32,000 bases of DNA from Pyrodictium delaneyi. GTDB lineage: Archaea > Thermoproteota > Thermoprotei_A > Sulfolobales > Pyrodictiaceae. Below, one piece after another: positions 5,622 through 31,996 of the stretch. Within the stretch, counting starts at the first letter, position 1. Each line of letters starts with the position of its first letter. The translations under genes and the position numbers were made by a program. The stretch lies in contig NZ_CP013011.1 in assembly GCF_001412615.1 (NCBI RefSeq), positions 210,001-242,000 of the forward strand. The letters are read 5' to 3'. The notes beneath the pieces were generated by a model. It worked only from the letters and a program-made list of their open reading frames with translations, made no database searches and was not told where the DNA came from.

Positions 5622-5685
5622 CTATTTTTCCACGTCTAGGCCCTTGTACAACTCCTCGAACGTTGTCCCATCTTCTCAGCCTCGT

Positions 5686-6572: not shown

Positions 6573-6689
6573 CATCAAGCCATGGACTATTGTATACGGA
6601 AAGCATATGGTACACTTTTTAAGGGGTAGCAAGGCCCTTGCCATCATCATAGCGCTACTGCGCAATACATGCTAGAATGGTGATTATGT

Positions 6690-7571
6690 ATGCCGAGGCT
6701 CAGCCGCCGGGGCAGACTCATACTAGTCTTCGCTACCGTTGCTGTATTGTCCGTGTTAGTGGCTCTCCCCTGGTACATAGCGTATAGCAGCCTCCACCCT
6801 GATACATGTAGGCCTAGCGTCACGCCGGGCGACCTCGGGCTAGGCTACGAGGGCTTCGCAGTCAATACTAGCGATGGGGTGACGATCCGGGGCTGGGTGA
6901 TCGAGCCCAGGGCCAGGGGCGATACCGTGTTCATACTGATGCATGGCTATACGTCATGCCGTTCTGCACCCTACATCCTCGACCTGGCAGAGGCTCTGGC
7001 CAGGAGGGGCTACCCGGTGGTCGTCTTCGACTTCCGGGGCCACGGGGAGAGCAGCGGCTCGACGACCATCGGGCCCAGGGAGGTGCTTGACGCGGAGGCC
7101 GTAGTGGGATATGCTGCCGAGCGGTTCCCGGGGCGGAGGATAGTGCTAGTTGGCTTCAGCATGGGTGGCGCTGTCGCTATAGTCGAGGGCGCGGGGGATC
7201 CCCGTGTCTATGCGGTGGCGGCTGACAGCCCCTACTACAGGCTCGCGGACGTTGTGCCCCGGTGGCTAGAGTATAAGACTCCGCTACCGGGCTGGATGGG
7301 CGTACTCGCCGGCTTTTACGGCCAGCTCATGGCCGGCGTTGACCTGGACTTCGGCCCGGCAATGGTGGAGCGTGTTGATAAGCCACTTATGGTTGTTTAT
7401 GGGACTCAAGACCCCCTAGTCACCCCCGAGGAGATGCGGGAAATAGCCTCCAAGAGTCCTTGCAGTATACTAGTCGGCGTGCCGGGCGCGGGCCACGTGG
7501 AGGCTGTCGAAAAGCTGGGCCCAGAGCGGTACGCGGAGATGCTTGTAGATCTCGCGCATAGGAGCTGCTAG
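6690..7571 (+). CDS. Membrane-anchored alpha/beta-fold serine hydrolase
   Basis: N-terminal TM helix (LILVFATVAVLSVLVALPWYIA). HG oxyanion region (ILMHGYTS). GxSxG nucleophile elbow (GFSMGG). Late Asp (GTQDPLV) and His (GAGHVEA). GGTGA at 6679-6683 lies 6 nt before the ATG. Confidence 0.85.
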   Translation: MPRLSRRGRLILVFATVAVLSVLVALPWYIAYSSLHPDTCRPSVTPGDLGLGYEGFAVNTSDGVTIRGWVIEPRARGDTVFILMHGYTSCRSAPYILDLAEALARRGYPVVVFDFRGHGESSGSTTIGPREVLDAEAVVGYAAERFPGRRIVLVGFSMGGAVAIVEGAGDPRVYAVAADSPYYRLADVVPRWLEYKTPLPGWMGVLAGFYGQLMAGVDLDFGPAMVERVDKPLMVVYGTQDPLVTPEEMREIASKSPCSILVGVPGAGHVEAVEKLGPERYAEMLVDLAHRSC

Positions 7572-7589
7572 GCTGGAGGCGGTTCCGTC

Positions 7590-7838
7590 TTGGTGTACAC
7601 GCGTGCGCTAGAGGAGGCCTACACAATGGCCCGGGGCGTAGAGCTGTCCTGCGGCAGAGTAGCAGAGCTAGAAGAGGCGCTAAGGGTTATCGAGGAGCTG
7701 ATGGAGCGGGGCGGTGGCGCCGAGGAGCTAGAGTATGCTGGAGCACTGCTAAGACAAGCTGGGGACGTGCTCCGGCTAAGAGGCTGCCTCGACTGGCACC
7801 TCCTAGTCCAAGCTGCGGACATCGTAGAGCATGCTTAA
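7590..7838 (+). CDS. Small hypothetical helical protein
   Basis: 82-aa ORF with a TTG start; ATG at 7626 is an alternative. E/L/A/R-rich and helical-looking, with no recognisable motif. It follows the hydrolase gene on the same strand. Confidence 0.35.
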   Translation: MVYTRALEEAYTMARGVELSCGRVAELEEALRVIEELMERGGGAEELEYAGALLRQAGDVLRLRGCLDWHLLVQAADIVEHA

Positions 7839-7942
7839 TCTGGAGATTGGCGACGATATGAAATATTCTTGATCAGCTATATAATGTGTCTAATGCTATA
7901 CAAGTAATATTCAACTCCAGATTTGGCAAGATCAGAGCAGTA

Positions 7943-10285
7943 TTACTGAGTTCTAGCAGTCTGGTTTATACCACCCAATATCGTGTCCACTGCGGCGGCT
8001 ATGGCCGCGGCTACGGCGGCTGCCCGGAGCAGAAGCGGGCTGCCCAGCAGCGAAGCGGCGGCTGCGACGGCTATGAAGGGCCACGGCGTGTACCCGCCGC
8101 CCCGGGGCCCCGCGGCTAACAGCACTGCCATCGTGTCGGGGCTGTAGGCCGCCATGAGCGCGAGGAGCGCAGCGGGCCGGGCCTCGAGCAGCACAGCGGT
8201 GGCGGCGCCGGCCAGCGCGGCGGCCGCCGGCGTAGCAGCCACGGCTGCGGCTGCCCCGGCTCCCGCGCCATGGGCTAGCAGCGTGGCTAGGTGGAAGCCC
8301 GCTGCGAGGCCTAGCAGGTAGAGGGCTCGCCGGATCCGGCTCTCCTGGAGCCCAGCTAAGCCGGCGTAGACTGGGCTGGGGGCTAGGAGGCCGGCGAGGA
8401 GCCCGTCGACGAGCCCCGGGCCTGCCCTAGCGGCTGCTGCGAGTACGGGGGCGAACACGCCCGCGGGCCCGGTGTAGGCGAGCAGCCCCACACCGAACCA
8501 GGCGGCGGCCGTCTTAGCTAGCCTACGGCGGCCCTGCCAGGAGTGGATTACTGAGAACCTATAGCCCATTGTCCAGTAGAACACCACGGCGGCTGCTAGC
8601 AGGGCTAGCCGGGCGAGCTTGCCGGTGTCCGCGGCCACTGTGTATAGGAACGGCGCCTCGGCAGGGGACGTGAAGCCGGGCCACGGGTGCATACCGTGTA
8701 GCAGGGCGGAGGCCAGCGCGCCGGCAGCAGCGGCGGCTCCAGCTGTCCAGCGCAGCGCTGTCTCCGTGGCGAGGCAGTCCCGTAGCCCAGCCCAGCCGAG
8801 CCAGCGGGCGGCCTCAACGGCGAGGAGCGGGCTGACAGCGAGCACTATTCCGGAGAGCATGGAGAGCTGTACGCTGTAGAAGTTGTAGAGCGTATGGTTC
8901 CCCGCAGCGTAGACTAAGGCGTAGCCTGCGACTGCAGATGCTAGTGCAGCAGCCGCGAAGGCTTCCGCGTTCTTCCCCGTACAGCTCCCGATGCATGTGC
9001 TGAGCGCAGCTGCTGCGAGCCCGGCTAGGGAGACGAGGAGCGCGGGCAACGTGATCACCGGGTTGGAAGCAGCCACGATGAGCGGCCTGCCGTCGACGTA
9101 GTGGAGGATGAAGCCGGGCACGCCTAGCAGCAGGCCGAGGGGCGTGGTCGAGGGCGGGCCCTCCGCGGGCCTGCTGGTTGTGTGCCAGCGGAGCGAGCCC
9201 ACGACCTCGTCGAGCCAGGCCCCGGGCCCCATCCACTCTATGAACGGGATCCAGGAGGCGAGCACCACGGCTAGCGGCACGGAGAGGAGTACTAGGGTCT
9301 TGGCGGGGCCTAGGCCCCGGAGCCGCGCGTAGACGAGGAGCGCGGGGAGCACGAAGAGCCCCGTATACTTCGCCGAGCCCGCGAGCCCCGCTAGCAGGGC
9401 CGCGGCGAAGGGATGGCCGTAGAGGAGCGCCGCCACAGCTAGCGCGTCGAGGCTCGCGGCATAGATGTCGAGCATGCCGACGGCCGACATCGATTGGACG
9501 CTCTGGTCGAGGAGGGCGAGGGCTGCCGGCGCCAGGGCGAGGACCAGGGCCCAGCGGCTGCCTACCCGCCTCGCAGCCCAGTACGCGGTGGCCGCAACCG
9601 CGGCGAGGCCGAGGGCGCCGGCGGCGAAGCTCGCAGCGCGCCACACCCAGTAGCGGAACCCCAGGAGGTCTATCAGGGCGGCGAAGATGTACTTGACTAG
9701 CGGCGGGTGCTCCGTGTTGAGGTAGTTGTTGATATTCTCCTTGTCCGGCATCACGCCGGGGACGGCGTCCAGGAAGCACGTAGACACCTGGGGGAGGGAT
9801 GCAACGGCCTGGTGCTCGCCGAGCGGGGCCTCGACGAGGAGCGCGTGGATCTCGCTATACTGTCTCCCGAGTATCCGGGCTCCCGGCGCATGCTCGTGGA
9901 TGAGCAGGCTGGCCTCTGCGGGGCTACACTCCCCGGGATTATAGAACACGGTGTAGACGGCATAGCTGCTGTTGACCCGGGCTACTAGGTCCCAGCCGAG
10001 CACCTTCCGCGCCACGTTTATCGATGACGGGATGTACCATACCTCGTCGCTGATATAGTCCTCGACCCCCAGGGTCTTCGAGAGCCCGCCGTGGTACAGT
10101 GCTAGCAGCGACGCCAGGTACGCAGCAGCAACGACAGCCAGGAGGACCCGGCGGCTAGGCTGCCCACGCCAGTTGCTGGTGCCCGCCACACCTGCTCCTC
10201 CAGCTAGTCTGCCGGCTAGACCCCGTGCCGTCGTAAATGTAGCGTCCCAGGGGCCCAGCATATAGGCGCCTGAGGGAAGGTACAC
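7943..10285 (-). CDS. Polytopic GT-C glycosyltransferase, dolichyl-phosphate-mannose--protein mannosyltransferase-like (PMT_2 / GT39-like)
   Basis: 780-aa multi-pass membrane protein. It has a DE motif in the first extracytoplasmic loop (YISDEVWYIP) and the block NTEHPPLVKYIFAALIDLLG, which resembles the hPPLgKy signature of the PMT_2 family. There are many Ala/Leu/Gly-rich helices. GTG start at 10285; ATG at 10261 is an alternative. It is divergent from a Dol-P-Man synthase gene. Confidence 0.8.
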   Translation of the reverse strand: MYLPSGAYMLGPWDATFTTARGLAGRLAGGAGVAGTSNWRGQPSRRVLLAVVAAAYLASLLALYHGGLSKTLGVEDYISDEVWYIPSSINVARKVLGWDLVARVNSSYAVYTVFYNPGECSPAEASLLIHEHAPGARILGRQYSEIHALLVEAPLGEHQAVASLPQVSTCFLDAVPGVMPDKENINNYLNTEHPPLVKYIFAALIDLLGFRYWVWRAASFAAGALGLAAVAATAYWAARRVGSRWALVLALAPAALALLDQSVQSMSAVGMLDIYAASLDALAVAALLYGHPFAAALLAGLAGSAKYTGLFVLPALLVYARLRGLGPAKTLVLLSVPLAVVLASWIPFIEWMGPGAWLDEVVGSLRWHTTSRPAEGPPSTTPLGLLLGVPGFILHYVDGRPLIVAASNPVITLPALLVSLAGLAAAALSTCIGSCTGKNAEAFAAAALASAVAGYALVYAAGNHTLYNFYSVQLSMLSGIVLAVSPLLAVEAARWLGWAGLRDCLATETALRWTAGAAAAAGALASALLHGMHPWPGFTSPAEAPFLYTVAADTGKLARLALLAAAVVFYWTMGYRFSVIHSWQGRRRLAKTAAAWFGVGLLAYTGPAGVFAPVLAAAARAGPGLVDGLLAGLLAPSPVYAGLAGLQESRIRRALYLLGLAAGFHLATLLAHGAGAGAAAAVAATPAAAALAGAATAVLLEARPAALLALMAAYSPDTMAVLLAAGPRGGGYTPWPFIAVAAAASLLGSPLLLRAAAVAAAIAAAVDTILGGINQTARTQ

Positions 10286-10332
10286 GAAGTACTCAGAAGC
10301 ACTTCAGGAGACGCTGGCATGGGCGTCGAGGC

Positions 10333-11418
10333 ATGAGCGATGACATGGAGCCAGCGGTTTCGATAGTGGTCCCGACGTATAACGAGAGGGAGAACCTGCC
10401 CCGGCTACTAGAGGAGATAGACCGCGTACTCCGGGGCAGAGGCATAGACTACGAGGTCGTGGTAGTAGACGACGATAGCCCTGATGGCACGTGGAGGGTC
10501 GCCGAGGAGTACGCGGAGCGGGGCCTCCCAGTCCGCGTGGTGAGGAGGCGGGGAGAGCGGGGCCTCGGCAGCGCCATCGCCCGGGGGCTCCGCGTAGCCC
10601 GCGGCCGCTACATAGTGGTCATGGACGCGGATCTCCAGCACCCGCCGGAGGCTATCCCCCGGCTCCTCGAGGAGGCCCGGAGGAGCGGTGCGCACCTCGT
10701 AGTCGCGACCCGGTACGGCCGCGGGGGCGGCGTGGAGGGCTGGAGCCGTTTCCGCCTCCTGGTCTCTCGTGTGGCGAGCCTGCTGGCATACCTCCTACTC
10801 CCCGAGGCCAGGGCCACTAGCGACCCTATGAGCGGCTTCTTCCTGGTCTCCCGCGAGCTCGCAGCGAGGGCGCCGGAGCGGCCGCGGAGCTGGAAGATAC
10901 TCCTAGACCTCCTAGTCGAGGCCCGGGGCAGGGTCTCGGAGGTCCCCTATGTCTTCCGCCGCCGCGCTGCGGGCGAGAGCAAGCTCGGCCTCCGGGAGAT
11001 GCTGGACTACGTGCTCCACCTGCTTGAGCTCTCAGGCTACCGGCCCATCAAGTTCGCGGTTGTCGGCGCAACTGGCACGCTCGTCAACCTCGCAGTACTA
11101 AGGCTTCTCCACGGCGCGCTGGGCGCACCGCTCCCGCTCTCGTTCCTCGCAGCGTTCGAGGCATCACTGACCTGGAATTACCTGCTCCACGACGCGTGGA
11201 CCTTCCGGGGCATCCGGCCCCCAGGCGTACTCAATAAGCTACGGTACTGGCTACGGTACCACGCCGCCGCCCTAGGCGGCCTCGCAGCATACATGTCCGT
11301 GGGCATGCTGTTGACCACACTGGGCCTAGACTACATGCTCGCGGGGCTGGCAGGGATAATCGCCGGCTTCCTAGCCAACTACACGCTCTCCCTCTACAAG
11401 GTGTGGAACAGCCGTTGA
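10333..11418 (+). CDS. Dolichol/polyprenol-phosphate mannosyltransferase (GT2, Dpm1-like) with a C-terminal GtrA-like membrane domain
   Basis: VSIVVPTYNERENLP, VVVVDDDSPDGT and VVMDADLQHPPE are classic GT2/DPM1 motifs. The C-terminal ~120 aa form 4 TM helices beginning KFAVVGATGTLVNLAVL (GtrA-like). Confidence 0.9.
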   Translation: MSDDMEPAVSIVVPTYNERENLPRLLEEIDRVLRGRGIDYEVVVVDDDSPDGTWRVAEEYAERGLPVRVVRRRGERGLGSAIARGLRVARGRYIVVMDADLQHPPEAIPRLLEEARRSGAHLVVATRYGRGGGVEGWSRFRLLVSRVASLLAYLLLPEARATSDPMSGFFLVSRELAARAPERPRSWKILLDLLVEARGRVSEVPYVFRRRAAGESKLGLREMLDYVLHLLELSGYRPIKFAVVGATGTLVNLAVLRLLHGALGAPLPLSFLAAFEASLTWNYLLHDAWTFRGIRPPGVLNKLRYWLRYHAAALGGLAAYMSVGMLLTTLGLDYMLAGLAGIIAGFLANYTLSLYKVWNSR

Positions 11419-11535
11419 ACAATACCGAGAACCTGCTTCACGCCGCACCAGGGCGTACTGACACGTCGCCCGGCAGGTAGATCGCAAGAGGGTTAATGGG
11501 CTTGTGCAGGCCTTGGCGTCCCTGGCGCAGAGGCC

Positions 11536-12519
11536 TTGGAGAGGCTGCCTAGCGGGATCCTCCGCGTAGAAGTACCGCTCCCCATAGAGAGCCTCGGGAG
11601 CGTGAACGTCTACGTCCTCTCCGACGGGGAGCCGTGGCTCGTAGACGCGGGGATCTACACAGCGAGGGCTGCGAGGCAGCTACTCCGGGGGCTCCGCGAG
11701 GCCGGCATACGGCCCTGCGACCTCGCCGGAGTAGTGGTGACACACTTCCACGTAGACCACATGACGCTGGCGCCGGTGCTGGCTGAGCTAGGGTCCCCAC
11801 GGCTCCTCATAGGCCGCGGCGACCTCGCAGTGCTCGAGTCGGGGGTGGAGGACTTCATAGACCGGGTGCTAGAGCTCTACACGTGGAGCGGGATGCCCAG
11901 AGAGGAGGCCGAAAAGATACGCAGGCACCACCCAGCAGTCCGCATGATGGAGGCTTACCGGGAGGCCTTGGAGCTGGACTGGAGGCCCCTAGGCGAGGGA
12001 GACCTGCTCCGCGCCGGCGGCCTAGAGCTACGCGTAGTCGAGGCCCCAGGCCACACACCTGGCCACATACTGCTCTACGGAGACGGGCTCCTATTTACCG
12101 GGGACACGGTACTCCCCGGCATAACGCCGCACGTGGTGCTCCACGGCGTCGACGAGGACCCGCTCGGCAGCTACCTGGAGAGCCTAAAACGCGTCGAGGC
12201 CATGGCGCCGGCCCTCGGGCTCCCCGGCCACCGTGGCGTCCTCCGTGACCCCGCAGCCCGGGCCAGGGAGATACGAGAGCACCACGAGAAGCGGCTCCGC
12301 GGGCTACACGAGCTGCTACAGCGCCGGGGCCCGCTGACCGGCTACGAGGCGGCTAGGCTGATGCGGTGGAGGACGCGCTACAGTAGCTGGGACGAGTATC
12401 CCCCTGCAGAGAGGTTCTTCGCAGTAGGCGAGGCGCTGGCCCACCTGAGGCACCTAGAAGCACGGGGCCAGGCCGAGCGCCTGGAGCGCGACGGCCTGCT
12501 AGCGTGGCGCGCCCTATAG
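11536..12519 (+). CDS. MBL-fold metallo-hydrolase
   Basis: HxHxDH motif (VTHFHVDHM). Downstream His motifs (EAPGHTPGH, LPGHRG). Helical C-terminal extension. TTG start as in the ORF track. Confidence 0.85.
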   Translation: MERLPSGILRVEVPLPIESLGSVNVYVLSDGEPWLVDAGIYTARAARQLLRGLREAGIRPCDLAGVVVTHFHVDHMTLAPVLAELGSPRLLIGRGDLAVLESGVEDFIDRVLELYTWSGMPREEAEKIRRHHPAVRMMEAYREALELDWRPLGEGDLLRAGGLELRVVEAPGHTPGHILLYGDGLLFTGDTVLPGITPHVVLHGVDEDPLGSYLESLKRVEAMAPALGLPGHRGVLRDPAARAREIREHHEKRLRGLHELLQRRGPLTGYEAARLMRWRTRYSSWDEYPPAERFFAVGEALAHLRHLEARGQAERLERDGLLAWRAL

Positions 12520-13095
12520 CCTGTCGAACCCGCCGTCGAGCCCGGCGTCGCCCAAGTCAAAGCCTGCATCACCCGTATCTTCGTAGTAAGCGTCCCCAGT
12601 GTCCACGTCGCCAGCCTCGTCCACGGCCTCGTAGCCGGACTCATCGCTCCAGCTACTACTCCACGCCAGGTCATCCACCAGCGCAAGCCCCGTGAGCACA
12701 CTGAGCAGCATCATAGCCTCCATAGCTGTTAGTAGCCCCAGCATTGGGAGCAGCGGTGCAGCCAGGAGCAGCTCCTGGGGGCTCCAGCGCCAGTCCTCTG
12801 GCAGCCGCTGCTCCCGGAGGAGCTTCTTAGCGGCGACTGCTGCATGCTCCATTAGCCTCATCGCCTCGGGCACAGTGTCGAGCCCCTGGCGCGTGAGCCG
12901 CAGCCTCCGACGCTTCAGTATCAGCCCGCTCTGGTACTCCTCCACGAGCCCCGCCGCCTTCAGCTCCTCGACTATGCTCTCCACAACCTCCCTGGAGACC
13001 CGGAGAGCCCTAGCTATCGCGTCCACAGTGTCCAGGCCCCGATGGATAGCGAGAAGGACAGCAGCCTGGCTAGGCGTAAGACCCCCAGCCACCAC
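12514..13095 (-). CDS. Winged-helix (MarR/TrmB-like) DNA-binding protein with a C-terminal hydrophobic segment and acidic Gly/Asp-rich tail
   Basis: N-terminal wHTH (LTPSQAAVLLAIHRGLDTVDAIARALRVSREVVESIVEELKAAGLVEE). ~32-aa hydrophobic stretch (LLLAAPLLPMLGLLTAMEAMMLLSVLTGLALV). ~55-aa tail rich in D/E/G with repeated GDA units. GTG start at 13095 lies 6 nt after GGGGTG. Confidence 0.75.
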   Translation of the reverse strand: MVAGGLTPSQAAVLLAIHRGLDTVDAIARALRVSREVVESIVEELKAAGLVEEYQSGLILKRRRLRLTRQGLDTVPEAMRLMEHAAVAAKKLLREQRLPEDWRWSPQELLLAAPLLPMLGLLTAMEAMMLLSVLTGLALVDDLAWSSSWSDESGYEAVDEAGDVDTGDAYYEDTGDAGFDLGDAGLDGGFDRL

Positions 13096-13153
13096 TCATT
13101 GCACCCCTTTGCATCCTAACTTCGATACACAGGGAACAGTTGAAAGCGAAATA

Positions 13154-13567
13154 ATGTTGCTCCCCCGACGGGCCCCTACGCCTACGCCTAGTAATAGACA
13201 GCGGGTATACACGCCGCGAGCTCTCCCGCAAGAGCCCCGGGGAGCTACTACGCCTCATAGAGGCAGCACGCGCCGAGGCCAGAAACTCATACGAGATAAT
13301 AACCGTCGATGGGGAGAGGATTCTACGGGCCAAGCTGCGATGGATAGGGGGGCACAGCGGCTAGCAAGGGAGCTGCTCCGGGGACCCGGGAGGCCCTGGA
13401 ACTGGCTGCGCGCGCCGAGAGGCCCGAGCACAGTTTCCTAGTCCTAATTGGCCTGGAGAGACTACGCAGCCTCGACAAAGAGCTGAGGAACTCGGCAACG
13501 CTTGGCAGAGCGACTCGACCTCAACGAGGCGGTGAGGCTAGTCAAGGAAGACCGCCAGGACTGGTAA
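13154..13567 (+). pseudogene. Possible decayed pair of small genes (coding-like segments spread over three frames)
   Basis: ATG 13154 is followed by a C5 run (13162-13166). Frame 3 then reads DGPLRLRLVIDSGYTRRELSRKSPGELLRLIEAARAEARNSYEIITVDGERILRAKLRWIGGHSG* (stop 13362-13364). ATG 13340 gives MDRGAQRLARELLRGP. A different frame then reads REALELAARAERPEHSFLVLIGLERLRSLDKELRNS. A third frame reads QRLAERLDLNEAVRLVKEDRQDW* (stop 13565-13567). No single intact ORF with a start covers these pieces. Confidence 0.25.
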
Positions 13568-13675: not shown

Positions 13676-15742
13676 TCATACTGCCCGGCTCTCCTCCGTA
13701 CTGCTTGTCGTTGTGGGGCTTGCTTGTTTCAGCTTCTCGGCTAGGTAGTCGAGGATTATCCGGTACCTCTTCATACGGTGCCGTGGCTTGGCCCGGATGC
13801 TGTGGCCGTGGCTGCCCCTGGTGAATACTACTAGCCGGCTCTCTTTGCCGTGGAAGCGTAGCGCTACGTGGAACGCTACGGCCTGGTCTATGAAGCACCG
13901 GTAGTCCTCCATACTGTGGATTATCAGTACCGGGGTCTCTACGCGGTCTACGTAGTTGATGGGGCTGGCGCGTTCGTAGTTCTCTGGGGAGCTCCAGGGT
14001 GTGCCGCATATCTGGTCTGGGTCGAACCAGTAGCCGATATCGCTGGTGCCGAAGTCTGCTCTCCAGTCGCTTATCCCGTTCTCGCTTATCGCTGCCCTGA
14101 ACCGGTTGGTCTGGGTTATTATCCAGTTGGTCATGTAGCCGCCGTAGCTTATACCCGTCATAGCCATCCTCCCGGGGTCGGCATTCTCGACGCTCTCTAG
14201 GAACGCGTCTAGGAACTCCATTATGTCCTGGTAGTCCCGGGTGCCATACTTGCAGCGTATGTCGGCGTACTCCTCGCTGTAGCCGTCGCTGCCCCGGGGG
14301 TTACAGTAGACCACGTAGTAGCCCTTGGCCGCTACGAGCTGGTGCATGAAGTTGAAGGCTGCACCGTAGCAGGCCTTAGGGCCGCCGTGGATGAAGAGCA
14401 CTACGGGGTACCGGTTCCCCGGCTCGCGGCGGGCCGGTGGAAGGTACCAGCCCTCGACTACCGTGCCGTCGCTAGCCCTTGCCTTCAGGTTGACGGGTTT
14501 CTGGAGCTCCACCTCTCCGAGCAGCCAGTCGTTGAACCGTGTGAGCCTCCTTGGCTGGCCCCGGCCTGGCTCGAGGATCCATATCTCGCCGGGCTCGGTG
14601 TAGCTTGTCCGAGCGTAAGCTATGACGCCTGCGTCGCGCGAGACGGTGAACGAGTAGACTACCTGCTCGCCGCTAGTGAGCTGCTCCAGGTGGCCCGTGC
14701 CGGGGTCTACCCGGTGGATGTTGACACGGCCGCCATCGTTGACGAGGAATAGTATGCCGTCCCCGGCCCATATGGGGTGAATGTTCCCGCGCGGCCAGGC
14801 GGCGTCGCTGGAGACGTAGGGCGCGGTGTTCCTGTCGAGGCTGCACGTGAGGCACCTGGGCTCGCCGCTGAGGCTTAGCAGCCATACGTGCTCGTGGCTC
14901 GCGAGGCCCCTTGGCAGCGCGTGGCCGTGGAGGACGAGGGCGTCTCCCCGGGGGCTCCACTCGACTGCGCTGAAGCTATAGCTGCCACTGAGCAGCGTCT
15001 CGGTCTCCCCGGTCTCCACGTCCACGAGCACGACTTCCGTGACGTGGGGGCGTAGCTGATCCCTCGAAACCAGTGCCGCTATCCGTTTCCCGTCGGGGCT
15101 CGGCGACGCATAGACCACGTTGAAGTCGCCGCTGGTCAGCCTTCTGTGTAGCCCAGACTCGTAGTCTACTAGGAGTATGTGGCTACGGTACTCCTCGGTG
15201 AAGCCGGCGCCGTCGAACCAGACTGGTAGGCCGCGTATATCCACGTAGTCCCCGTCCTCGTCTATGCTCCGGGCCGGCGTCGGCGCCACGGCGAGGATGG
15301 TGCTGGAGTCGGGCATCCAGCGTGCCTGGACGAAGCCGTACCGGCTCTGGTATACGCGGCGCGGCTCGCCGCCAAGATGGTACACATAGAGCGCTGTACC
15401 CTTCTCTTTCTCGCCTAGGCCCCGGCGGCTCGTGAAGAGAAGCTTCTCGCCGTCGGGGCTCCAGCGGGGCTGGGAGTCGCCCTCGCCCTGCAGCACGGCT
15501 AGCGTCTTGCCGGCGGGCAGCTCGTAGATCCATATCTCGTTCCGGTACAAGTTCTTCTCGAGATCCGGCCTCACAGCGACGAGTGCTACCCGGCTGCCGC
15601 CAGGCGAGACCTGGGGATCACCGACGTGGACTAGGCGAGAGAAGTCCTCAACCTCCAGGAGCCGCTTCCTAGGGGCCAATTCTGCTCCCTCAGACCTCTC
15701 CTCGGCGGGGCTCGGGCTGATAAACGTCAGACCTACGTCCAT
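13676..15742 (-). CDS. S9-family serine peptidase (prolyl oligopeptidase / acylaminoacyl-peptidase type) with an N-terminal beta-propeller
   Basis: Repeated WSPDG-like blades (PRWSPDGEKLLF, ARWMPDSS, ASPSPDGKRIA, VEWSPRGDALV). FIHGGP. GxSxGG nucleophile (GISYGGYM). Late Asp (HSMEDYRC) and His (RGSHGHS). The ORF track start at 15832 would run into the divergent HMG-CoA synthase gene, so I prefer ATG 15742 (MDVGLTF...). Confidence 0.9.
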   Translation of the reverse strand: MDVGLTFISPSPAEERSEGAELAPRKRLLEVEDFSRLVHVGDPQVSPGGSRVALVAVRPDLEKNLYRNEIWIYELPAGKTLAVLQGEGDSQPRWSPDGEKLLFTSRRGLGEKEKGTALYVYHLGGEPRRVYQSRYGFVQARWMPDSSTILAVAPTPARSIDEDGDYVDIRGLPVWFDGAGFTEEYRSHILLVDYESGLHRRLTSGDFNVVYASPSPDGKRIAALVSRDQLRPHVTEVVLVDVETGETETLLSGSYSFSAVEWSPRGDALVLHGHALPRGLASHEHVWLLSLSGEPRCLTCSLDRNTAPYVSSDAAWPRGNIHPIWAGDGILFLVNDGGRVNIHRVDPGTGHLEQLTSGEQVVYSFTVSRDAGVIAYARTSYTEPGEIWILEPGRGQPRRLTRFNDWLLGEVELQKPVNLKARASDGTVVEGWYLPPARREPGNRYPVVLFIHGGPKACYGAAFNFMHQLVAAKGYYVVYCNPRGSDGYSEEYADIRCKYGTRDYQDIMEFLDAFLESVENADPGRMAMTGISYGGYMTNWIITQTNRFRAAISENGISDWRADFGTSDIGYWFDPDQICGTPWSSPENYERASPINYVDRVETPVLIIHSMEDYRCFIDQAVAFHVALRFHGKESRLVVFTRGSHGHSIRAKPRHRMKRYRIILDYLAEKLKQASPTTTSSTEESRAV

Positions 15743-15830
15743 CGTCGAATAGCGTCTTCGACTGTTGCTGGAGGGGAAGGACTCTTCTACCGCCCTACGG
15801 CGACAAGTTGATCCAACATGGAGGAACGGC

Positions 15831-16880
15831 ATGGCGCGAGGCAGCGGTATAGCTGGGTGGGGTGCCTACATACCCCGCTACCGGGTAAAGGCCAGCGAGA
15901 TAGCGAGGGTCTGGGGCTGGGAGCCAAGCGTCCCCAGGGGCCTCGGAGTCGAGGAGAAGGCCGTCGCGGGCCCTGACGAGGACTCGGTCACGATAGGGGT
16001 CGAGGCGGCCCGCAACGCTATCCGCCGCGCCAGCGTAGACCCCACGAGGATCAAGGCAGTCTTCTTCGGCACAGAGTCTAAGCCCTACGCGGTCAAGCCC
16101 TCCGCGACGATAGTAGCCGAGGCTCTGGGCATAACACCGGAGACCATGGCCTCCGACTTGGAGTTCGCCTGCCGCGCGGCGAGCGAGGGCATGAGGGCGG
16201 GCTTCGCCCTCATAGAAGCCGGGTACATGGAGTACGCGCTGGCCATTGGCGCCGATACGGCGCAGGCTAACCCCGGCGACGTCCTGGAGTTCACTGCTGC
16301 GAGTGGCGGCGCAGCCTTCGTCCTAGGCCCTGCGGGCGACAGCGTCGCGGTCCTCGAGGGCGTATACACCTACGCTACCGACACGCCAGACTTCTGGCGG
16401 GGCGCTCACAGCCCCTACCCGCTCCACGGCGAAGGCTTCACCGGCGAGCCGGCCTACTTCCACCACATAGAGAGCGCGGTCAAGGGGCTCATGGAGTCCC
16501 TGGGGCTCCGTCCAGACGACTTCGACTACGCGGTCTTCCACCAGCCTAACGGCAAGTTCCCGCTCCGCGTGGGCAAAAAACTAGGCTTCCCCAAGGAGAA
16601 GATCCTCCCCGGCCTAGTCACCCCAATGATAGGCAACACGTACAACGGGAGCGCGCTCCTCGGCCTAGCCCGGGTCCTCGACCAGGCTAAGCCCGGGCAG
16701 CGGATCCTAGTAGCCCCATTCGGCAGCGGCGCGGGGAGCGACGCCTACAGCTTCATAGTGACCGATAAGATAGAGGAGCGCAGAGACCGGGCCCCAAAGG
16801 TTGACGACTACATCGAGGCCAAGCGCTACATCGACTACGCAGCCTACGCGAAGATGAGGAGCCTCTACGTACGCATCTAG
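15831..16880 (+). CDS. Hydroxymethylglutaryl-CoA synthase (archaeal type)
   Basis: [15 protein letters not shown]-terminus, active-site Cys context [13 protein letters not shown], and HQPNGKFP / GNTYNGS motifs typical of archaeal HMGCS. ATG 15831 lies 5 nt after GGAGGA (15820-15825). The ORF track TTG at 15765 is probably an over-extension. Confidence 0.92.
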
Positions 16881-27852: not shown

Positions 27853-29058
27853 CTATAGTGGGGACAGCGCTTCTTTTCTCGGCTCTGGGCCTAGCCCTGG
27901 CTCCCGTGGATGCTGGAGGATTACGCCTCCCGGTTCTGGCCGATAGACTGGCGGGTTCTCGACCGGATCCTCCTCTAGGAATAGCGCCGCGTCTAGGTCC
28001 ACGTACCTTGTAACCGGGCTCGTCAATGCTGGATGCAGTGCCTGCGCTATGCCCAGCCCCGTCTCCACCATGCAGCCCCACATAGCCTCGAGCCCGTGGG
28101 CCTCAAGCATCGCGGCGGCTCGCGCCGCCCTAAGCGGGCCCCCTATCTTCGCTATCTTGATGTTCACGACGTCCACCGCGCCCATGGCCGCCACCCTGGC
28201 TATCTCCTCGGGGCTCCGTGCCGTCTCGTCAGCTGCTACCGGGGCCTCGACAGCACTCCTCACGGCCGCCAGGTCCTCGATCCTAGCTGCCGGGACCGGC
28301 TGCTCTACCAGCTCCAGGGCTGTGCCGAGGCTCCGCTCAAGCCGGCGTATCACCCATATTGCCTGCTTCCTCGTCCAAGCCTGGTTAGCGTCCACCCTTA
28401 TCCTCGCCCTACCCCGAGCAGCCTCGTAGACGGTCTCCGCCAGGAGCACGTCGTCCTCAACGCTCCCAGTCCCAAGCTTCACCTTGAGCACGCGGAAGCC
28501 CTGCACACCGGGAAGCGGGAAACCAGGATCCTCTGGGGGCTCGCGGCGGAGCCCGACGAGGTACTCGACAGCCTCTATGAAGGCGTCCCGGCGGGGCCCA
28601 CTACCCCTACGGAGTTCCTCTAGAGCCTCTTGGTCAGGTATCGAGACAGTATAGTCGGTCTCGAGGCTATTGTACACCCTGCCGCCGAGGAGCGTGTAGA
28701 GCGGCGTGTCGAGTACACGGGCAGAAGCGTCAAGCACGGCAGCCTCCAGCGCGGCACGGGCCGAGCTGAAGCCCGGTGCACCCGTGTGTACACGGCGGAG
28801 CGCCTCGCCCAGTTCGCCCGGAAGATCTAGCCCCTCAAGCCTCCTCGCCACAGTCTCTACGTAGGCCTTCACTGCCGCCGTATTCTCCCAGGTAACCCTA
28901 GGAGCAGGCGCTGCCTCACCCCAGCCCCTCGTACCGTCGCTTAGCTTAAGCTCCACCACGATGCTCTCCATCGTGGCTGACGCCGCGTAAGCTATGCGGA
29001 AGACGCCCCGTAGTCTCGCCTGAAGCTTGTAGACCCGAACCCGCTCTATCCGCGGCAA
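27853..29058 (-). CDS. Enolase-superfamily racemase/epimerase, muconate-lactonizing-enzyme subgroup (dipeptide epimerase / N-acylamino-acid racemase-like)
   Basis: KxK (LKVKLG). Metal ligands in RVDANQAW, LVEQP and VAADE. Second catalytic Lys in VNIKIAKIGG. WGCMVETGLG follows. TTG start. Confidence 0.9.
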   Translation of the reverse strand: MPRIERVRVYKLQARLRGVFRIAYAASATMESIVVELKLSDGTRGWGEAAPAPRVTWENTAAVKAYVETVARRLEGLDLPGELGEALRRVHTGAPGFSSARAALEAAVLDASARVLDTPLYTLLGGRVYNSLETDYTVSIPDQEALEELRRGSGPRRDAFIEAVEYLVGLRREPPEDPGFPLPGVQGFRVLKVKLGTGSVEDDVLLAETVYEAARGRARIRVDANQAWTRKQAIWVIRRLERSLGTALELVEQPVPAARIEDLAAVRSAVEAPVAADETARSPEEIARVAAMGAVDVVNIKIAKIGGPLRAARAAAMLEAHGLEAMWGCMVETGLGIAQALHPALTSPVTRYVDLDAALFLEEDPVENPPVYRPEPGGVILQHPREPGLGPEPRKEALSPL

Positions 29059-29083
29059 GGCCTAGGCCCCGCTAGCCGCCAAA

Positions 29084-29100
29084 AGCAGCTATGGGCTGCT
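29084..29100 (-). terminator. Hairpin plus T-run after the permease gene (terminator-like)
   Basis: The minus strand reads AGCAGC-ccata-GCTGCT followed by TTT. This lies 35 nt after the permease stop and before the racemase start. Confidence 0.3.
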
Positions 29101-29134
29101 ATGGATTTCAGCTTTACCACAACCTCCTGCTAGT

Positions 29135-30778
29135 CTACTGGCTTGGAGTACCCTTGTCCTCCTTAGACGTGTAGAGATAGTGCCACCTCCTACTGTGCTC
29201 TAGCCATCGCTTCTCCTCGCCAGGCCTAGCGAAGTGTATGTGAAGGGGGTGCTGGGGTGTAAGGCCCGCCTCTTCGCGTATACGTCTAGCCTCTTCCTCA
29301 GCCTCTCTACGCGTCCGGGGAGTCCTCGATGTGACTACAAGCACATCTACGTCGTGCGCTCGGTGGAGTTCGCCACGCGCTACGCTCCCAACCAAGTATA
29401 CCTTGGCGTCGTGAAACCTCCTAACAATGACTGCTACTATGCGTGGTACCCAGGTGGCCCAGTTCCTGATGTTCTCCTCTCTTAGGTGTAGCTTGTAGTC
29501 GATGTACTCTGCTATCTCCCTACCAGTCAGCACCCGGTAGACGTATTCTACAGTAAAGGAGCCTGCAAGTAGTAGGATGAACACGGTCACTTGGCGAGGG
29601 TCTAGAGTAGCTGTACGGTAGATGAGAAGCGCTAACGCCATAACGGTGGCCAGCGCCCCGGCGCCTGCCACTAGTGGGTTAACCCTCGCCTCTCTACGAA
29701 GCCGGAGGGCTGCAACATTGACGGCTGTGAATATCAGGAGGAAGCCTGCACTACCAGCCGTAGATATAGCCTCAAGACTTGCAGCCTCGGCGAGGACGAG
29801 CGAGAGTAGACTAATTATAGCTAGGCCCTCAGGCGCTTGTCGCCATATCCTCCGCCCCACGCTGGCAGGCAACTGGCCATACTTGGCAACCATGTAGCTT
29901 ATCCTAGCAGTACCATAGAGCGTCGCGTTTATTGCAGAACTGGTAGAGGCTAGGGCGGCAGCGACAACAATGCCGAAGCCTAGCTCTCCTAGAGCAGGCT
30001 TAGCGGCTTCCGCGAGCGCGTAGTCACGTGCCCGCATAACCTCCTCGGGAGAGAGTGTACCTGCAGCAACAAGAGCTACCATGACGTATATAGCTGTCAC
30101 GACCAGTACAGCGGCGAAGAACGCTCTAGGCAGGACACGTGGATCCTCGACATCAGCGGCAGCGTTAGCTATGAGTTCGAACCCCTCGTACGCTAAGAAT
30201 ATTATCATACCGCCTGCTACTATGTTGACTAAGCTGGGCCACTGGGAGGGGCTAAACCTACCCCATTCTACAAACCCGAGTCCAGCGCCGGCAACTACGA
30301 CTAGTATAGCAAGCTTGAAGAATACGAGAGCATCTTCAACTCTTCCAGTTACTACAGCGCCGAGCGCGTTCAGAAACGTGAATATAGCTATAGCGAGGGC
30401 GATAAACACGTGCCTAAGGAGGACAGCTTCGCCAAACAGGCTTGCCGCGTAACTCCCAAAGGCGTACGCGTAGAGCGCAATCATCACTATGTAGCTCGTA
30501 AGCAACATAATATTGAGCCCGCCGGCAAGAATGCCGCGGCCAAAAGCCCTCACAATATACTCTATCGTCCCGCCTTCGCTCGGATAGCGGATGGAAAGCT
30601 TCGCGTAAGAATACGACGTAGCCAGAGCCACTAAGCCTGCGAGGAGAAACGCTACGGGTGCAGCAGTACCAGCAAGCTGGAGACTAAGCCCCAGAACGGC
30701 GAAAATACCGCCACCTATCATTCCGCCAACTCCTATGCTGAATGCCTCTATGAAGCCTATCTTCCTCCTGTCTGGCAC
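29135..30778 (-). CDS. APC-superfamily amino-acid permease fused to a C-terminal minimal nucleotidyltransferase (MNT / NTP_transf_2-like) domain
   Basis: The first ~430 aa are a typical APC permease (GVGGMIGGGIFAVLG, multiple TM helices, FLAYEGFELIANAA). The last ~115 aa read VYLVGSVARGELHRAHDVDVLVV...HIHF, i.e. the G-S-x(9-13)-D-x-D pattern of Pol-beta-type minimal nucleotidyltransferases. No stop codon separates the two parts. GTG start lies 9 nt after GGAGG. Confidence 0.88.
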   Translation of the reverse strand: MPDRRKIGFIEAFSIGVGGMIGGGIFAVLGLSLQLAGTAAPVAFLLAGLVALATSYSYAKLSIRYPSEGGTIEYIVRAFGRGILAGGLNIMLLTSYIVMIALYAYAFGSYAASLFGEAVLLRHVFIALAIAIFTFLNALGAVVTGRVEDALVFFKLAILVVVAGAGLGFVEWGRFSPSQWPSLVNIVAGGMIIFLAYEGFELIANAAADVEDPRVLPRAFFAAVLVVTAIYVMVALVAAGTLSPEEVMRARDYALAEAAKPALGELGFGIVVAAALASTSSAINATLYGTARISYMVAKYGQLPASVGRRIWRQAPEGLAIISLLSLVLAEAASLEAISTAGSAGFLLIFTAVNVAALRLRREARVNPLVAGAGALATVMALALLIYRTATLDPRQVTVFILLLAGSFTVEYVYRVLTGREIAEYIDYKLHLREENIRNWATWVPRIVAVIVRRFHDAKVYLVGSVARGELHRAHDVDVLVVTSRTPRTRREAEEEARRIREEAGLTPQHPLHIHFARPGEEKRWLEHSRRWHYLYTSKEDKGTPSQ

Positions 30779-30907
30779 GAATGGATGCCTCCTTTGTTGC
30801 CTCTAATTTTGTACCTCAAAATTGTTTTCTTTCATTATTATTTAGCTGCTTATTGATTTTAGGCTAGAATTGAAAATTTCTATTCACGTGTTGTATAACA
30901 CACTAAG
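30779..30907 (-). promoter_or_regulatory. AT-rich spacer with promoter-like elements for the permease gene
   Basis: 129 bp of markedly AT-rich DNA lie between the DUF1611 stop and the permease start. The minus strand shows a small hairpin GTGTT-atac-AACAC plus ATTTTC just after the upstream stop. TATA-like TAAATAATAAT follows ~60 nt before the GTG, then GGAGG (plus-strand CCTCC 30788-30792). Confidence 0.35.
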
Positions 30908-31996
30908 TTATTCACCGATAATTCTATCTACTATAGCTTTCACACCAGTCCTTAAAGGATCCAATGCGGGCACCATATAAGTCTCACTATATTCTCTTTC
31001 GATTCTCTTAGCCTCGTTTATCGTATACATGCTAGTATTCAGCGTTATCCCCGCCAGCACCGCGTTAGGGTAGGGGTTCAGCGCTGTCAAGTAGGTTAGC
31101 TCTTCGCCGGGCTCTGGGTTACGTAGGGGCTTCCATGCGTGGCTGAATGCTGCCCGCCAGCGGCGGCCAGGCACATGCGCCACGACTATGTGTGTGGGAG
31201 AGGCGCCACGCAGTATGCCCAGAGACACGTGGCCGTAAGCTTCATGAGTTATCGCCGCCTGGCCCTCGACCACAGCCACCTCGCAGCCCTGCTCGTAGGC
31301 CTCGACTATCACCTGCTCGAGCGCTCCGGCTACGAAGTCGCTCGGCACAGCGTCCACGACTAAGCCACGTGCGCCGAGGAGCAACATCGTCTGCCCAGTG
31401 CCGATCATACAAGCTTTTACGCTGCGGCGCTCGAGTTCTTTGTAGATAGTATAGGTGGCGATATTCTTCCCCGCTTCACAGTCTGTCCCGGCTATAAGGA
31501 CGCGCTTCATCCTGGTGCCGAGTACACGTCCATCCCAGACGCGGAAGTAACGGGGATCAGGCTTACGTACATCGACTATCCTGGCACCACCCTTCTCGGC
31601 GGCAGCCCGTAGCTCGGGGTCATCGGATAGGAAGGTGTGGAGCCCGCTGTAGACGTCGAGACCCATCTCAAGCGCGTCGCGGATGTCCCGCTTCCACTCC
31701 TCTGGCAGCCGGCCACCTACCGGAGCAGCTCCAAGAATCAAGGCCTCAGCGCCTTTCTCGACCGCCTCCCTAAGCCCCTGCACTATGGGGATGCCCTTCC
31801 GGCCCAGGCCAATGAATTCGCCAGCATCACGACCGGCGTTAAACGGATCTATAACTGCGACGAGGTCCCATAGGAGCCCGCCGTCAAATATTACGAGATC
31901 GTGCCCTGTCTTACCTTCCTCCCGGCCATAGGCTCCAGGAGCATATATAGCTGCCCTTCTCCGGCCCTCATGGTACACCATAGGCACAGCTACCAC
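30908..31996 (-). CDS. DUF1611-family protein (DgcN-like putative D-glutamate N-acetyltransferase family)
   Basis: AAIYAPGAYGREEGKTGHDLV, VAVIDPFNAGRDAGE, IPIVQGL, ALILGAAPVGGRLPEEW, GLDVYSGLHTFLSDDPEL, IVDVRKP and the P-loop-like AGTDCEAGKNIAT match my memory of the DUF1611 (PF07755) alignment. The start is near the window edge: GTG 31996 or ATG 31981. The frame is still open at 32000. Confidence 0.85.
   Translation of the reverse strand: MVAVPMVYHEGRRRAAIYAPGAYGREEGKTGHDLVIFDGGLLWDLVAVIDPFNAGRDAGEFIGLGRKGIPIVQGLREAVEKGAEALILGAAPVGGRLPEEWKRDIRDALEMGLDVYSGLHTFLSDDPELRAAAEKGGARIVDVRKPDPRYFRVWDGRVLGTRMKRVLIAGTDCEAGKNIATYTIYKELERRSVKACMIGTGQTMLLLGARGLVVDAVPSDFVAGALEQVIVEAYEQGCEVAVVEGQAAITHEAYGHVSLGILRGASPTHIVVAHVPGRRWRAAFSHAWKPLRNPEPGEELTYLTALNPYPNAVLAGITLNTSMYTINEAKRIEREYSETYMVPALDPLRTGVKAIVDRIIGE

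Follow-up and report, generated by a model that had tools for sequence, protein, structure and literature searches.

The window analysed, 32,000 nucleotides of the genome of Pyrodictium delaneyi, contains three minus-strand genes, all of which were recovered as open reading frames at the coordinates given in the original prediction. [quoted passage not shown] The host had been supposed to be a hyperthermophilic crenarchaeon, which agrees with its identity as P. delaneyi strain Hulk, an organism with a growth optimum of 90°C. Peptides are oxidised by this strain (PMC5556600). Two ORFs of 180 aa are found downstream of the enolase gene; neither gave a Pfam or a PDB match, and their identification as Cob_adeno_trans homologues, by comparison with the neighbours in P. 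occultum and H. butylicus, was rejected. Rfam and tRNA scans returned no matches.

When compared with Pfam, the DUF1611 protein (30908..31987, minus strand; 359 aa in the gene call of the public record) matched PF07755 with an E value of 2e-61 (207 bits, cut-off 25) and PF17396 with an E value of 2e-33 (115 bits, cut-off 22.6), so that its N-terminal Rossmann-like and C-terminal P-loop-like domains both lie above the Pfam gathering scores. The motifs GLHTFLSDDPEL, VDVRKP and GTDCEAGK are present in its translation. The DUF1611 domains and hallmark motifs announced for positions 30908-31996 were thus confirmed, but not the end of the gene: the longest ORF reaches 31996, its frame continuing without a stop codon up to the edge of the window, while the public record places the start at the GTG at 31987. 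The P-loop-like motif GTDCxxGK-N is invariant and lacks a Ser/Thr following the Lys. In the PDB, the protein matched 2G0T (E 3e-49) and 7XRJ (E 3e-41), and every motif that is invariant in the family is also present in 7XRJ. Polyubiquitin matches obtained in the same search were discarded as an artefact of summed repeats, no single stretch having passed. Against the NCBIfam model of DgcN (NF041892), the score was 216.7 bits (E 4e-64), below the curated equivalog cut-off of 480. As haloarchaeal DUF1611 proteins reach only 187-195 bits on this model, less than the 217 of the Pyrodictium protein, this cut-off is narrow. From these matches, the first protein is a bona fide member of the DUF1611 family, homologous to DgcN.

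The gene located between the two others (29135-30778) had been described as an APC amino-acid permease, and its product indeed matched AA_permease_2 with an E value of 3e-34 (119 bits, cut-off 27), which places it in the APC superfamily. No NCBIfam subfamily cut-off was reached, the 168.6 bits obtained with TIGR00909 being under the threshold of that model, and an identical protein of P. delaneyi is named 'amino acid:proton symporter, ABT family'. The membrane part (29528..30778, minus strand, about aa 1-417) contains about 12 hydrophobic segments, and the hydropathy peaks stop at about aa 417. The remainder of the same polypeptide (29135..29527, minus strand) is a hydrophilic C-terminal tail with a minimal nucleotidyltransferase domain (NTP_transf_2), which had escaped the original prediction. 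This domain matched PF01909 over aa 451-521 (nt 29216-29428; E 1e-11, 45.3 bits, cut-off 21), and the required pattern G[SG]xx[RK]G ... DxD reads GSVARG...DVDV in the tail translation. The fusion is kept in more than 100 homologue clusters of the permease, and the nucleotidyltransferase motif was present in 98 of 120. We found no literature description of a permease with a C-terminal nucleotidyltransferase domain, and no HEPN partner for this domain was found in the window. A nucleotidyltransferase match adjoining DUF1611 in a Pyrolobus MAG corresponded to an ordinary HEPN-MNT gene.

The DUF1611 and permease genes are separated by an AT-rich spacer of 129 bp (30779..30907, minus strand; 31% G+C against 60% for the window), which may harbour an archaeal promoter for the permease gene. 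In the intergenic stretch that follows the permease stop codon and precedes the enolase start, a hairpin with a 6-bp stem and a 5-nt loop, AGCAGC-CCATA-GCTGCT, is followed by TTTT (29081..29100, minus strand); it was read in the sequence and also forms in the MFE structure. The spacer and the hairpin with its T-run are therefore present as described; however, the whole 76-nt permease/enolase spacer folds no better than shuffled sequences (z = 0.08), and the hairpin at 29081-29100 was not reported by a simple terminator scan. The separate promoters originally suggested are no more than a possibility. A sigma-70 promoter scan was set aside as irrelevant to an archaeon.

The third gene (27853..29058, minus strand) encodes a protein of 401 aa which matched MR_MLE_N and MR_MLE_C in Pfam. 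The full catalytic set of the MLE subgroup, as originally read in the sequence, is present: K192-x-K194 at the end of strand 2, the metal ligands D223, E252 and D277, and the second catalytic lysine K301 at the end of strand 6. Neither these residues nor D354 and D356 vary in two alignments, of 13 and 49 homologues. Furthermore, Lys304, in the second shell, is the equivalent of B. subtilis K271, a residue important in 1,1-proton transfer (bioRxiv 10.1101/2022.03.03.481873). An insertion specific to the clade, of about 30-45 aa (roughly aa 143-189), separates the first strand of the barrel from the second. The AF2 model (pLDDT 96.9) gave dipeptide epimerases and MLEs as top Foldseek matches, which confirmed the MLE-subgroup fold and did not separate the epimerases from the MLEs. 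On its residues, the third protein is best described as a putative two-base racemase/epimerase-type enzyme of the enolase superfamily.

The best NCBIfam model for this protein was the Thermotoga-type L-Ala-D/L-Glu epimerase (183 bits), and its best PDB sequence matches, 1JPM, 3RIT, 2ZAD and 3JVA, are all dipeptide epimerases. The closest characterised enzymes are YkfB, TM0006 and the dipeptide epimerases of M. capsulatus and E. faecalis, with 30-34% identity. The scores on the dipeptide epimerase models NF041118 and NF011708 (182.9 and 92.2 bits) stayed under the equivalog cut-offs (500 and 343), as did the score on the DgcA model NF042940 (143.4 bits against 400), which is also below that of the Thermotoga epimerase model. 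As in the AEE family, D354-L-D356 aligns with the DFD, DLD and DLD of 1JPM, 3RIT and 2ZAD. By sequence, the enzyme sits with the YkfB/TM0006-type dipeptide epimerases rather than with DgcA (on the NCBIfam model scores), OSBS or NSAR. In YkfB, Arg24 of the 20s loop contacts the side-chain carboxylate of Glu; the aligned position in the Pyrodictium enzyme is Ala25 (FRIAYAAS), so that the arginine of the L-Ala-D/L-Glu-specific enzymes is missing. The choice of D-glutamate as substrate is thus unsupported, it being noted that 3RIT, a cationic-dipeptide enzyme, also has Arg at this position, which alone is a weak guide.

Gene neighbourhoods were then tabulated for 46 related archaeal DUF1611 loci, in each of which one flank or both could be used. 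The commonest neighbour was an AEE-like enolase (9 of the 46 loci), with gaps of 6-108 bp in eight of these nine pairs. The paired loci showed tandem, divergent and convergent arrangements, and their DUF1611 proteins are 41-100% identical to that of P. delaneyi. In P. occultum, an orthologous enolase of 401 aa directly and divergently adjoins the DUF1611 gene, and the other neighbours are not common to the two species. As for DgcN, the DUF1611 gene thus lies next to that of a racemase of the dipeptide-epimerase family, with one gene between them in P. delaneyi. On pHV4 of Haloferax volcanii, the pair is accompanied by a D-aminoacylase-family amidohydrolase and a peptide ABC transporter; on a plasmid of Halorussus (H. 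halophilus), a DUF1611-epimerase pair is found with NlpC/P60, an S9 peptidase and DacB; and in Sphingobium, a TonB importer lies between the epimerase and DUF1611 genes, with a dipeptidase and serine hydrolases alongside. The pairing of DUF1611 with the enolase is therefore real and recurrent, in Thermoproteota, in haloarchaea and in Sphingobium. In contrast, the adjacency of all three genes is not conserved: the permease family is widespread (55-72% identity in Archaeoglobi and Thermoproteota), but none of the DUF1611 loci read in relatives contains an orthologue, and the position between the pair was seen only in P. delaneyi. Moreover, DUF1611 and the enolase are unlinked in H. butylicus, Pyrofollis and several Pyrodictiaceae MAGs, which make up most of the close relatives. 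Elsewhere, DUF1611 is paired with PLP-dependent racemases, and its partner racemases have at least two, perhaps three, unrelated folds.

A deacetylase was sought by Pfam analysis of all large ORFs of the first 18 kb (1-18 kb) and in precomputed Pfam results for 17.8-32 kb and 8.8 kb beyond. No M20/ArgE, M42 or amidohydrolase protein was detected in the window or in the 8.8 kb past position 32000; the search yielded only an S9 peptidase, an alpha/beta hydrolase and two proteins of the metallo-beta-lactamase fold. The original remark that no deacetylase is visible in the window thus held, and one of the places suggested for it, past 32000, yielded none over 8.8 kb.

In marine Proteobacteria and Halobacteria, a DgcN-DgcA route of D-glutamate catabolism was published by Yu et al. 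in 2023 (ISME J 17:537), in which DgcN was reportedly assigned by experiment as a D-Glu N-acetyltransferase and its partner as an enolase member of the dipeptide-epimerase family. The Pyrodictium locus most likely represents a version of this known kind of route, by which D-amino acids, or peptides containing them, would be converted to usable L-forms. It is best read as an acylate-then-epimerise route (DgcN/DgcA-like) or as a dipeptide-epimerase route for imported D-amino-acid material, and the substrate need not be D-glutamate. To the narrower proposal that the DUF1611 and enolase proteins form a functional pair homologous to DgcN and DgcA, in a two-step stereo-inversion route, we give an even chance.

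According to the DgcN/DgcA-like scheme, the permease or another importer would take up a D-amino acid or else a small peptide containing a D-residue; the permease encoded between the pair may supply this substrate, a link that would be specific to P. delaneyi. The DUF1611 enzyme would N-acylate the D-amino acid, probably from acetyl-CoA, by homology to DgcN. The enolase-family enzyme would in turn invert the alpha-carbon of the N-acylated residue, as the chemistry of its family suggests, via a Mg2+-stabilised enolate and with Lys194 and Lys301, both present in the protein, acting as the two bases. The L-amino acid would finally be freed by an amidohydrolase encoded away from the locus.

This scheme is supported by the presence of both DUF1611 domains and the homology to DgcN, 7XRJ and 2G0T, by the full two-base epimerase set with Lys304, by the recurrent DUF1611-enolase linkage, by the peptide-oxidising physiology of strain Hulk, and by the published route in Proteobacteria and Halobacteria. 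However, both proteins score far under the DgcN and DgcA equivalog cut-offs (217 against 480 and 143 against 400 bits), the enolase resembles true dipeptide epimerases more closely than DgcA and keeps the DxD, no deacylase is encoded nearby, the pair is unlinked in most close relatives, and the permease belongs to a widely conserved general family which occupies this place only in P. delaneyi. The original DgcN/DgcA interpretation is partly sustained. A more specialised version, in which a thermophile-adapted, permease-fed system inverts a non-glutamate D-amino acid or a D-residue dipeptide, for feeding on bacterial cell-wall debris at vents or for the recovery of amino acids that heat has racemised at 90-105°C, is considered unlikely. 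Spontaneous racemisation at high temperature, which had been proposed as the rationale of the locus, is not needed as an explanation, because mesophilic halophiles and bacteria carry the same pair.

The enolase may instead be a genuine dipeptide epimerase acting on L-Xaa-D/L-Yaa, as in the recycling of murein peptides by YkfB/YcjG; it would receive imported or peptidase-derived dipeptides, DUF1611 would have a different, accessory role and no N-acetyl intermediate would be formed. The four top PDB matches and the best NCBIfam model are in favour of this explanation, and so is the company of the haloarchaeal and Sphingobium pairs, among NlpC/P60, DacB, dipeptidase, serine hydrolases and peptide ABC transporters. 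In addition, an M42 aminopeptidase or TldD adjoins the pair in two Thermoproteota loci. In dipeptide epimerases, the DxD after the eighth strand binds the free N-terminal ammonium group. The invariance of D354 and D356 would therefore fit, but the motif is equally invariant in haloarchaeal sequences whose best model is DgcA, and it was set aside as uninformative for discriminating between dipeptide epimerases and DgcA. Furthermore, DUF1611 is left unexplained, even though DgcN has reportedly been assigned by experiment as a D-Glu N-acetyltransferase with an enolase partner of the same family, and an APC permease is a carrier of amino acids, not of peptides. This explanation is possible, although somewhat unlikely.

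A coincidental neighbourhood, consisting of a general amino-acid importer and of DUF1611 and enolase proteins engaged in unrelated processes, would account for the wide distribution of the permease and for its absence beside DUF1611 in the other loci read. It would also fit the isolated position of the long-type enolase in H. butylicus and on three contigs from metagenomes, and the 129-bp AT-rich spacer and the T-run, which may point to separate transcription. However, the repeated and variously arranged adjacency of two roughly single-copy genes is far beyond chance, the pair stays close in P. occultum and P. delaneyi despite rearrangement, and an epimerase/importer/DUF1611 layout is also found in Sphingobium, which makes coincidence quite improbable. 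The biosynthetic direction, in which a D-amino acid, free or N-acylated, would be made for a product of the cell envelope or of secondary metabolism, was considered since epimerases are reversible and since DUF1611 is flanked by two ATP-grasp ligase genes on a Burkholderia plasmid and lies among NRPS genes on a Bacillus plasmid. It is judged very improbable for Pyrodictium: no ligase, NRPS or envelope genes were found near the pair, in the window and 8.8 kb beyond, and the archaeal context, where present, is made of hydrolases and importers. Finally, an o-succinylbenzoate synthase or NSAR of menaquinone metabolism, suggested by weak sub-threshold matches to OSBS models (TIGR01927, 99.7 bits, cut-off 130.55), is effectively refuted by these model scores, by PDB scores of 58-80 bits for OSBS and NSAR chains against 147-172 for dipeptide epimerases, and by the lack of men genes within about 10 kb on either side.

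If the DUF1611-enolase pair is active, the use of D-amino acids by a DgcN/DgcA-type or a dipeptide-epimerase route would be extended to hyperthermophilic Thermoproteota, and the enzymes would be thermostable catalysts with which N-acyl amino acids or dipeptides could be made or resolved. Should the permease-fed, non-glutamate or dipeptide version hold, it would be the first D-to-L salvage system of the enolase type in Thermoproteota. More generally, racemase partners of at least two folds, together with the hydrolases and importers of peptidoglycan type seen in haloarchaea and Sphingobium, help to frame the role of DUF1611. The D-amino-acid metabolism known to us in the context of hyperthermophilic Thermoproteota proceeds via enzymes of other types, namely PLP-dependent racemases in Pyrococcus and aspartate racemases.

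Compared with the DgcN-DgcA system, the Pyrodictium locus likewise encodes, close together, a DUF1611 protein whose motifs are common to 7XRJ and an enolase of the dipeptide-epimerase family with the two-lysine, Mg2+ machinery. It differs in that both proteins are well under the equivalog cut-offs (NF041892, NF042940), the enolase belongs to a YkfB/TM0006-like branch with an extra insertion, a permease lies between the genes, no DgcR-type regulator or deacylase is encoded nearby, and the host is a member of the Thermoproteota growing optimally at 90°C. With the characterised dipeptide epimerases, which are its best sequence and structure matches, the enolase shares the KxK, D/E/D, K and DxD residues and the second-shell lysine; it departs from them by its 30-34% identity, the Ala at the Arg24 position, the insertion of 30-45 aa and scores under the NCBIfam cut-offs. 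Its archaeal host is not known to make peptidoglycan. The permease has the AA_permease_2 core of the ABT-type APC permeases and adds a conserved C-terminal nucleotidyltransferase domain. In the haloarchaeal clusters (Haloferax volcanii pHV4, Halorussus halophilus plasmid), DUF1611 also adjoins an enolase whose best NCBIfam model is the Thermotoga-type epimerase, with importers beside the pair; theirs add a D-aminoacylase-family amidohydrolase, NlpC/P60, DacB, an S9 peptidase and peptide ABC transporters, whereas the Pyrodictium locus has the APC permease only and no hydrolase. Taken together, these comparisons describe a known system extended to a new group, which is neither categorically new nor a new kind of system.

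The three minus-strand genes of the cluster were all found where the original prediction had placed them. For the DUF1611 gene (30908-31996), both Pfam domains matched (PF07755, E 2e-61; PF17396, E 2e-33), and the motifs previously quoted, GLHTFLSDDPEL, VDVRKP and GTDCEAGK, were read in its translation. The reading frame does not close before the window edge; the public gene call starts at GTG 31987 and gives a protein of 359 aa. On the NCBIfam model of DgcN, the D-glutamate N-acetyltransferase (NF041892), this protein scored 217 bits (E 4e-64), far under the equivalog cut-off of 480 bits. The haloarchaeal DUF1611 proteins, including the member of the H. volcanii cluster, reached 187-195 bits on the same model. 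The protein is clearly homologous to DgcN, and the cut-off is narrow. Its relatives in the PDB were T. maritima TM0796 (2G0T, E 3e-49), 7XRJ (E 3e-41), which we take to be the DgcN structure, and 2OBN. Directly after the P-loop-like GTDCxxGK, every member of the archaeal DUF1611 clade has Asn, 2G0T has Arg and 7XRJ has Met. Because the Ser/Thr typical of true NTPases is missing from all of them at this position, the motif would fit nucleotide or CoA binding rather than an ATPase role.

The enolase-superfamily gene (27853-29058, minus strand) matched MR_MLE_N and MR_MLE_C. The full catalytic set of the MLE subgroup was confirmed, since K192-x-K194, D223, E252, D277 and K301 are invariant in 49 homologues. 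When compared with PDB sequences, the nearest relatives of the enzyme were experimentally characterised dipeptide epimerases, with 172 bits for B. subtilis YkfB (1JPM), 163 bits for M. capsulatus (3RIT) and 147 bits each for T. maritima TM0006 (2ZAD) and E. faecalis (3JVA); muconate lactonising enzymes scored about 128 bits and E. coli YcjG 73 bits. The fold of the MLE subgroup was confirmed by Foldseek, in which the top hits were dipeptide epimerases and MLEs. Among NCBIfam models, the Thermotoga-type L-Ala-D/L-Glu epimerase was the best (183 bits), followed by DgcA, the N-acetyl-D-glutamate racemase (143 bits), both scores lying below the cut-offs.

At the position of YkfB Arg24, the residue that contacts the side-chain carboxylate of Glu, the enzyme has Ala, which therefore provides no argument for glutamate as substrate. 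This position is a weak guide to specificity, because 3RIT, a cationic-dipeptide enzyme, also carries Arg there. With Ala at this position, the D-glutamate specificity considered first was not supported. The DxD motif is kept (D354/D356); as it is equally invariant in haloarchaeal sequences scoring best on DgcA, it does not separate dipeptide epimerases from DgcA and was rejected as a discriminator. The second-shell Lys304 is also kept, at the position of B. subtilis K271, the mutation of which lowers kcat (bioRxiv 10.1101/2022.03.03.481873). Pyrodictiaceae and Desulfurococcales encode a clade of such enzymes, 390-405 aa long, to which this one belongs and whose members have in common an insertion (about aa 143-189) between the first and second barrel strands. 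In the AlphaFold2 model (mean pLDDT 96.9), two helices and a long coil make up this insertion, which is modelled with confidence; oligomer contact and thermostability are possibilities for its role.

Between these genes lies, as predicted, an APC-superfamily permease (29135-30778, minus strand; AA_permease_2, E 3e-34). What had been omitted is its hydrophilic tail of about 125 aa (29135-29527), which matches PF01909 (E 1e-11), carries a GSVARG...DVDV motif and is a minimal nucleotidyltransferase domain. Homologues of the permease (more than 100 clusters, 55-72% identity) occur in Archaeoglobus, Geoglobus, Pyrolobus, P. occultum, Pyrofollis and Desulfurococcales. The same fusion is present in almost all of these clusters, and the nucleotidyltransferase catalytic motif is kept in 98 of 120; no description of an APC/ABT permease-NTase fusion was found in the literature. 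At the other collected DUF1611 loci, no permease homologue was found, its placement between the pair being limited to P. delaneyi. As a rule, then, this widespread and conserved family does not belong specifically to the module, so that neither a dedicated importer nor a three-gene adjacency conserved in relatives could be upheld. An importer wedged into the pair has a precedent, since in Sphingobium yanoikuyae pKN1 (L067 937-9270) the order is serine hydrolase, dipeptide epimerase, TonB-dependent receptor, DUF1611, hypothetical protein, serine hydrolase and dipeptidase; the epimerase/importer/DUF1611 layout is like that of the window, with the TonB-dependent receptor as importer. The 129-bp spacer of the cluster is indeed AT-rich (31% G+C), and the hairpin with its TTTT was read at 29081-29100 (minus strand). 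The fold of the hairpin spacer was no better than that of its own shuffles (z = 0.08), and the hairpin was not reported by a terminator scan.

The neighbours of DUF1611 were compared by ORF clustering in 53 loci obtained from genomes, metagenomes and exact-protein look-ups (L-numbers). An AEE-like enolase, that is, of the dipeptide-epimerase type, was the most recurrent single neighbour (9 of the 46 loci in which one flank or both could be used; 6 of the 26 in which both could). It adjoins DUF1611 directly in eight of the nine linked loci, with gaps of 6-108 bp, either in tandem (DUF1611 then enolase in L009 and L014, the reverse in L015), divergently (P. occultum, L012) or convergently (L025, L026, L031, L035). 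In the linked loci, DUF1611 shares 41-100% identity with the window protein. Near the long-type enolase of both P. occultum (L012 6147-6698) and H. butylicus (L016 3756-4295) lies a gene of the Cob_adeno_trans family, about 180 aa in length; similar-sized window ORFs beside the enolase showed no homology to it.

Other lineages display further contexts. The order on H. volcanii pHV4 (L060 6986-14837) is DUF1611, dipeptide epimerase, D-aminoacylase-family amidohydrolase and peptide ABC transporter; in Halorussus halophilus (L064 4917-12840) it is NlpC/P60, DUF1611, dipeptide epimerase, HTH gene and S9 peptidase, and the cluster also includes DacB and an oligopeptide ABC transporter. For both enolases the Thermotoga-type epimerase model was the best, and these clusters look like bacterial cell-wall peptide catabolism. 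On plasmids of Ruegeria (L061 6875-9192), Vibrio (L062 6869-9207) and Aliiroseovarius (L063 5845-8216), a longer DUF1611 gene (about 400 aa) overlaps the gene of a PLP-dependent racemase. The annotation of this racemase is alanine or alanine/ornithine racemase family, that of Ruegeria matching the ornithine-racemase (Orr) model best. The racemases paired with DUF1611 therefore have unrelated folds. One archaeal lineage, with about 44% identity between its DUF1611 and that of the window, has an Asp/Glu racemase (PF01177) at a distance of two genes, after a SurE gene (L033 7013-7720; also L037 and L051). Racemase and epimerase neighbours thus link the family to amino-acid stereochemistry time and again. 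The Burkholderia DUF1611 gene sits between two ATP-grasp genes. A lineage with 39%-identical DUF1611 presents a D-hydantoinase/dihydropyrimidinase-like amidohydrolase, two PLP (PALP) enzymes and an OTCase-like carbamoyltransferase as flanks (L041, L044, L046, L047, L054, around 5500-13200), which is a separate conserved context.

A deacetylase was suggested to lie past position 32000 or elsewhere; neither the window nor the following 8.8 kb was found to contain an M20/ArgE, M42 or amidohydrolase gene. Upstream of DUF1611, the stretch past position 32000 (L001 1-8505) encodes a 490-aa protein that matched no Pfam family, an FG-GAP/beta-propeller protein and a number of multihaem-cytochrome-like genes, the last fitting the iron-reducing lifestyle of the organism. 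Hydrolases located beside the pair elsewhere are an M42 aminopeptidase (L015), a TldD/PmbA protein (L014) and an Amidohydro_2 protein (P. occultum), in addition to the H. volcanii amidohydrolase. An acylaminoacyl-peptidase-like protein of the S9 prolyl-oligopeptidase family (718 aa, PD40 propeller repeats; window 13676-15832, minus strand) is encoded apart from the cluster, at a distance of 12 kb. Two large ORFs have no Pfam match, one of 780 aa (7943-10285, minus strand, 69% G+C) and one of 841 aa (3096-5621, plus strand, 50% G+C).

Starting from the observed homologies, catalytic residues and recurrent linkage, we give roughly even chances to a pair working like DgcN/DgcA, through acylation, inversion and deacylation. 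DUF1611 would acylate a D-amino acid, the enolase would invert it via two bases in a Mg2+-dependent reaction and an unlinked hydrolase would deacylate the product, the substrate being perhaps supplied via the permease. Which acyl donor and substrate are used, which way the route runs and whether the permease takes part are what we infer. The main alternative, in which DUF1611 has another role and the enolase acts as a true dipeptide epimerase, keeps a modest chance of being correct; the two are not told apart by sequence, and this one agrees with the observed gene contexts, as does the DgcN/DgcA-like route, and both need a downstream amidohydrolase. That the adjacency is coincidental is unlikely. 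The pairing is recurrent and not universal: DUF1611 is unpaired in Hyperthermus butylicus, Pyrofollis japonicus and several Pyrodictiaceae MAGs, and the long-type enolase is unpaired in three metagenome contigs and in H. butylicus, where it adjoins a polar-amino-acid ABC transporter. P. occultum and P. delaneyi have no common neighbours around the pair apart from the pair itself, the proximity of which therefore outlived rearrangement, and the recurrent linkage is far above chance for two roughly single-copy genes. A pair running in the biosynthetic direction is quite improbable; where DUF1611 accompanies an enolase-type epimerase, the associated hydrolases and importers are those typical of pathways that degrade peptides with D-residues. 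An o-succinylbenzoate synthase (OSBS) is scarcely credible, the enolase scoring 58-80 bits against NSAR/OSBS.

The window was matched to contig NCQP01000006.1 (GCA_002194565.1) of P. delaneyi strain Hulk. This strain grows at 70-105 °C, with an optimum at 90 °C, and can oxidise peptides; its genome paper mentions no racemase or epimerase and does not discuss the genes of the cluster (PMC5556600). The appeal made earlier to heat racemisation is attractive and not needed, because the same pair occurs in mesophiles. The DgcN-DgcA route has been published for marine Proteobacteria and halophilic archaea (Yu et al. 2023); a full-text literature search for DUF1611 found two papers, neither of them on archaea. 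A known kind of gene pair is therefore extended to Thermoproteota. Compared with DgcN-DgcA, the P. delaneyi enolase comes from a different branch of the epimerase family and carries an insertion specific to its clade, and the two genes are separated by that of an importer.
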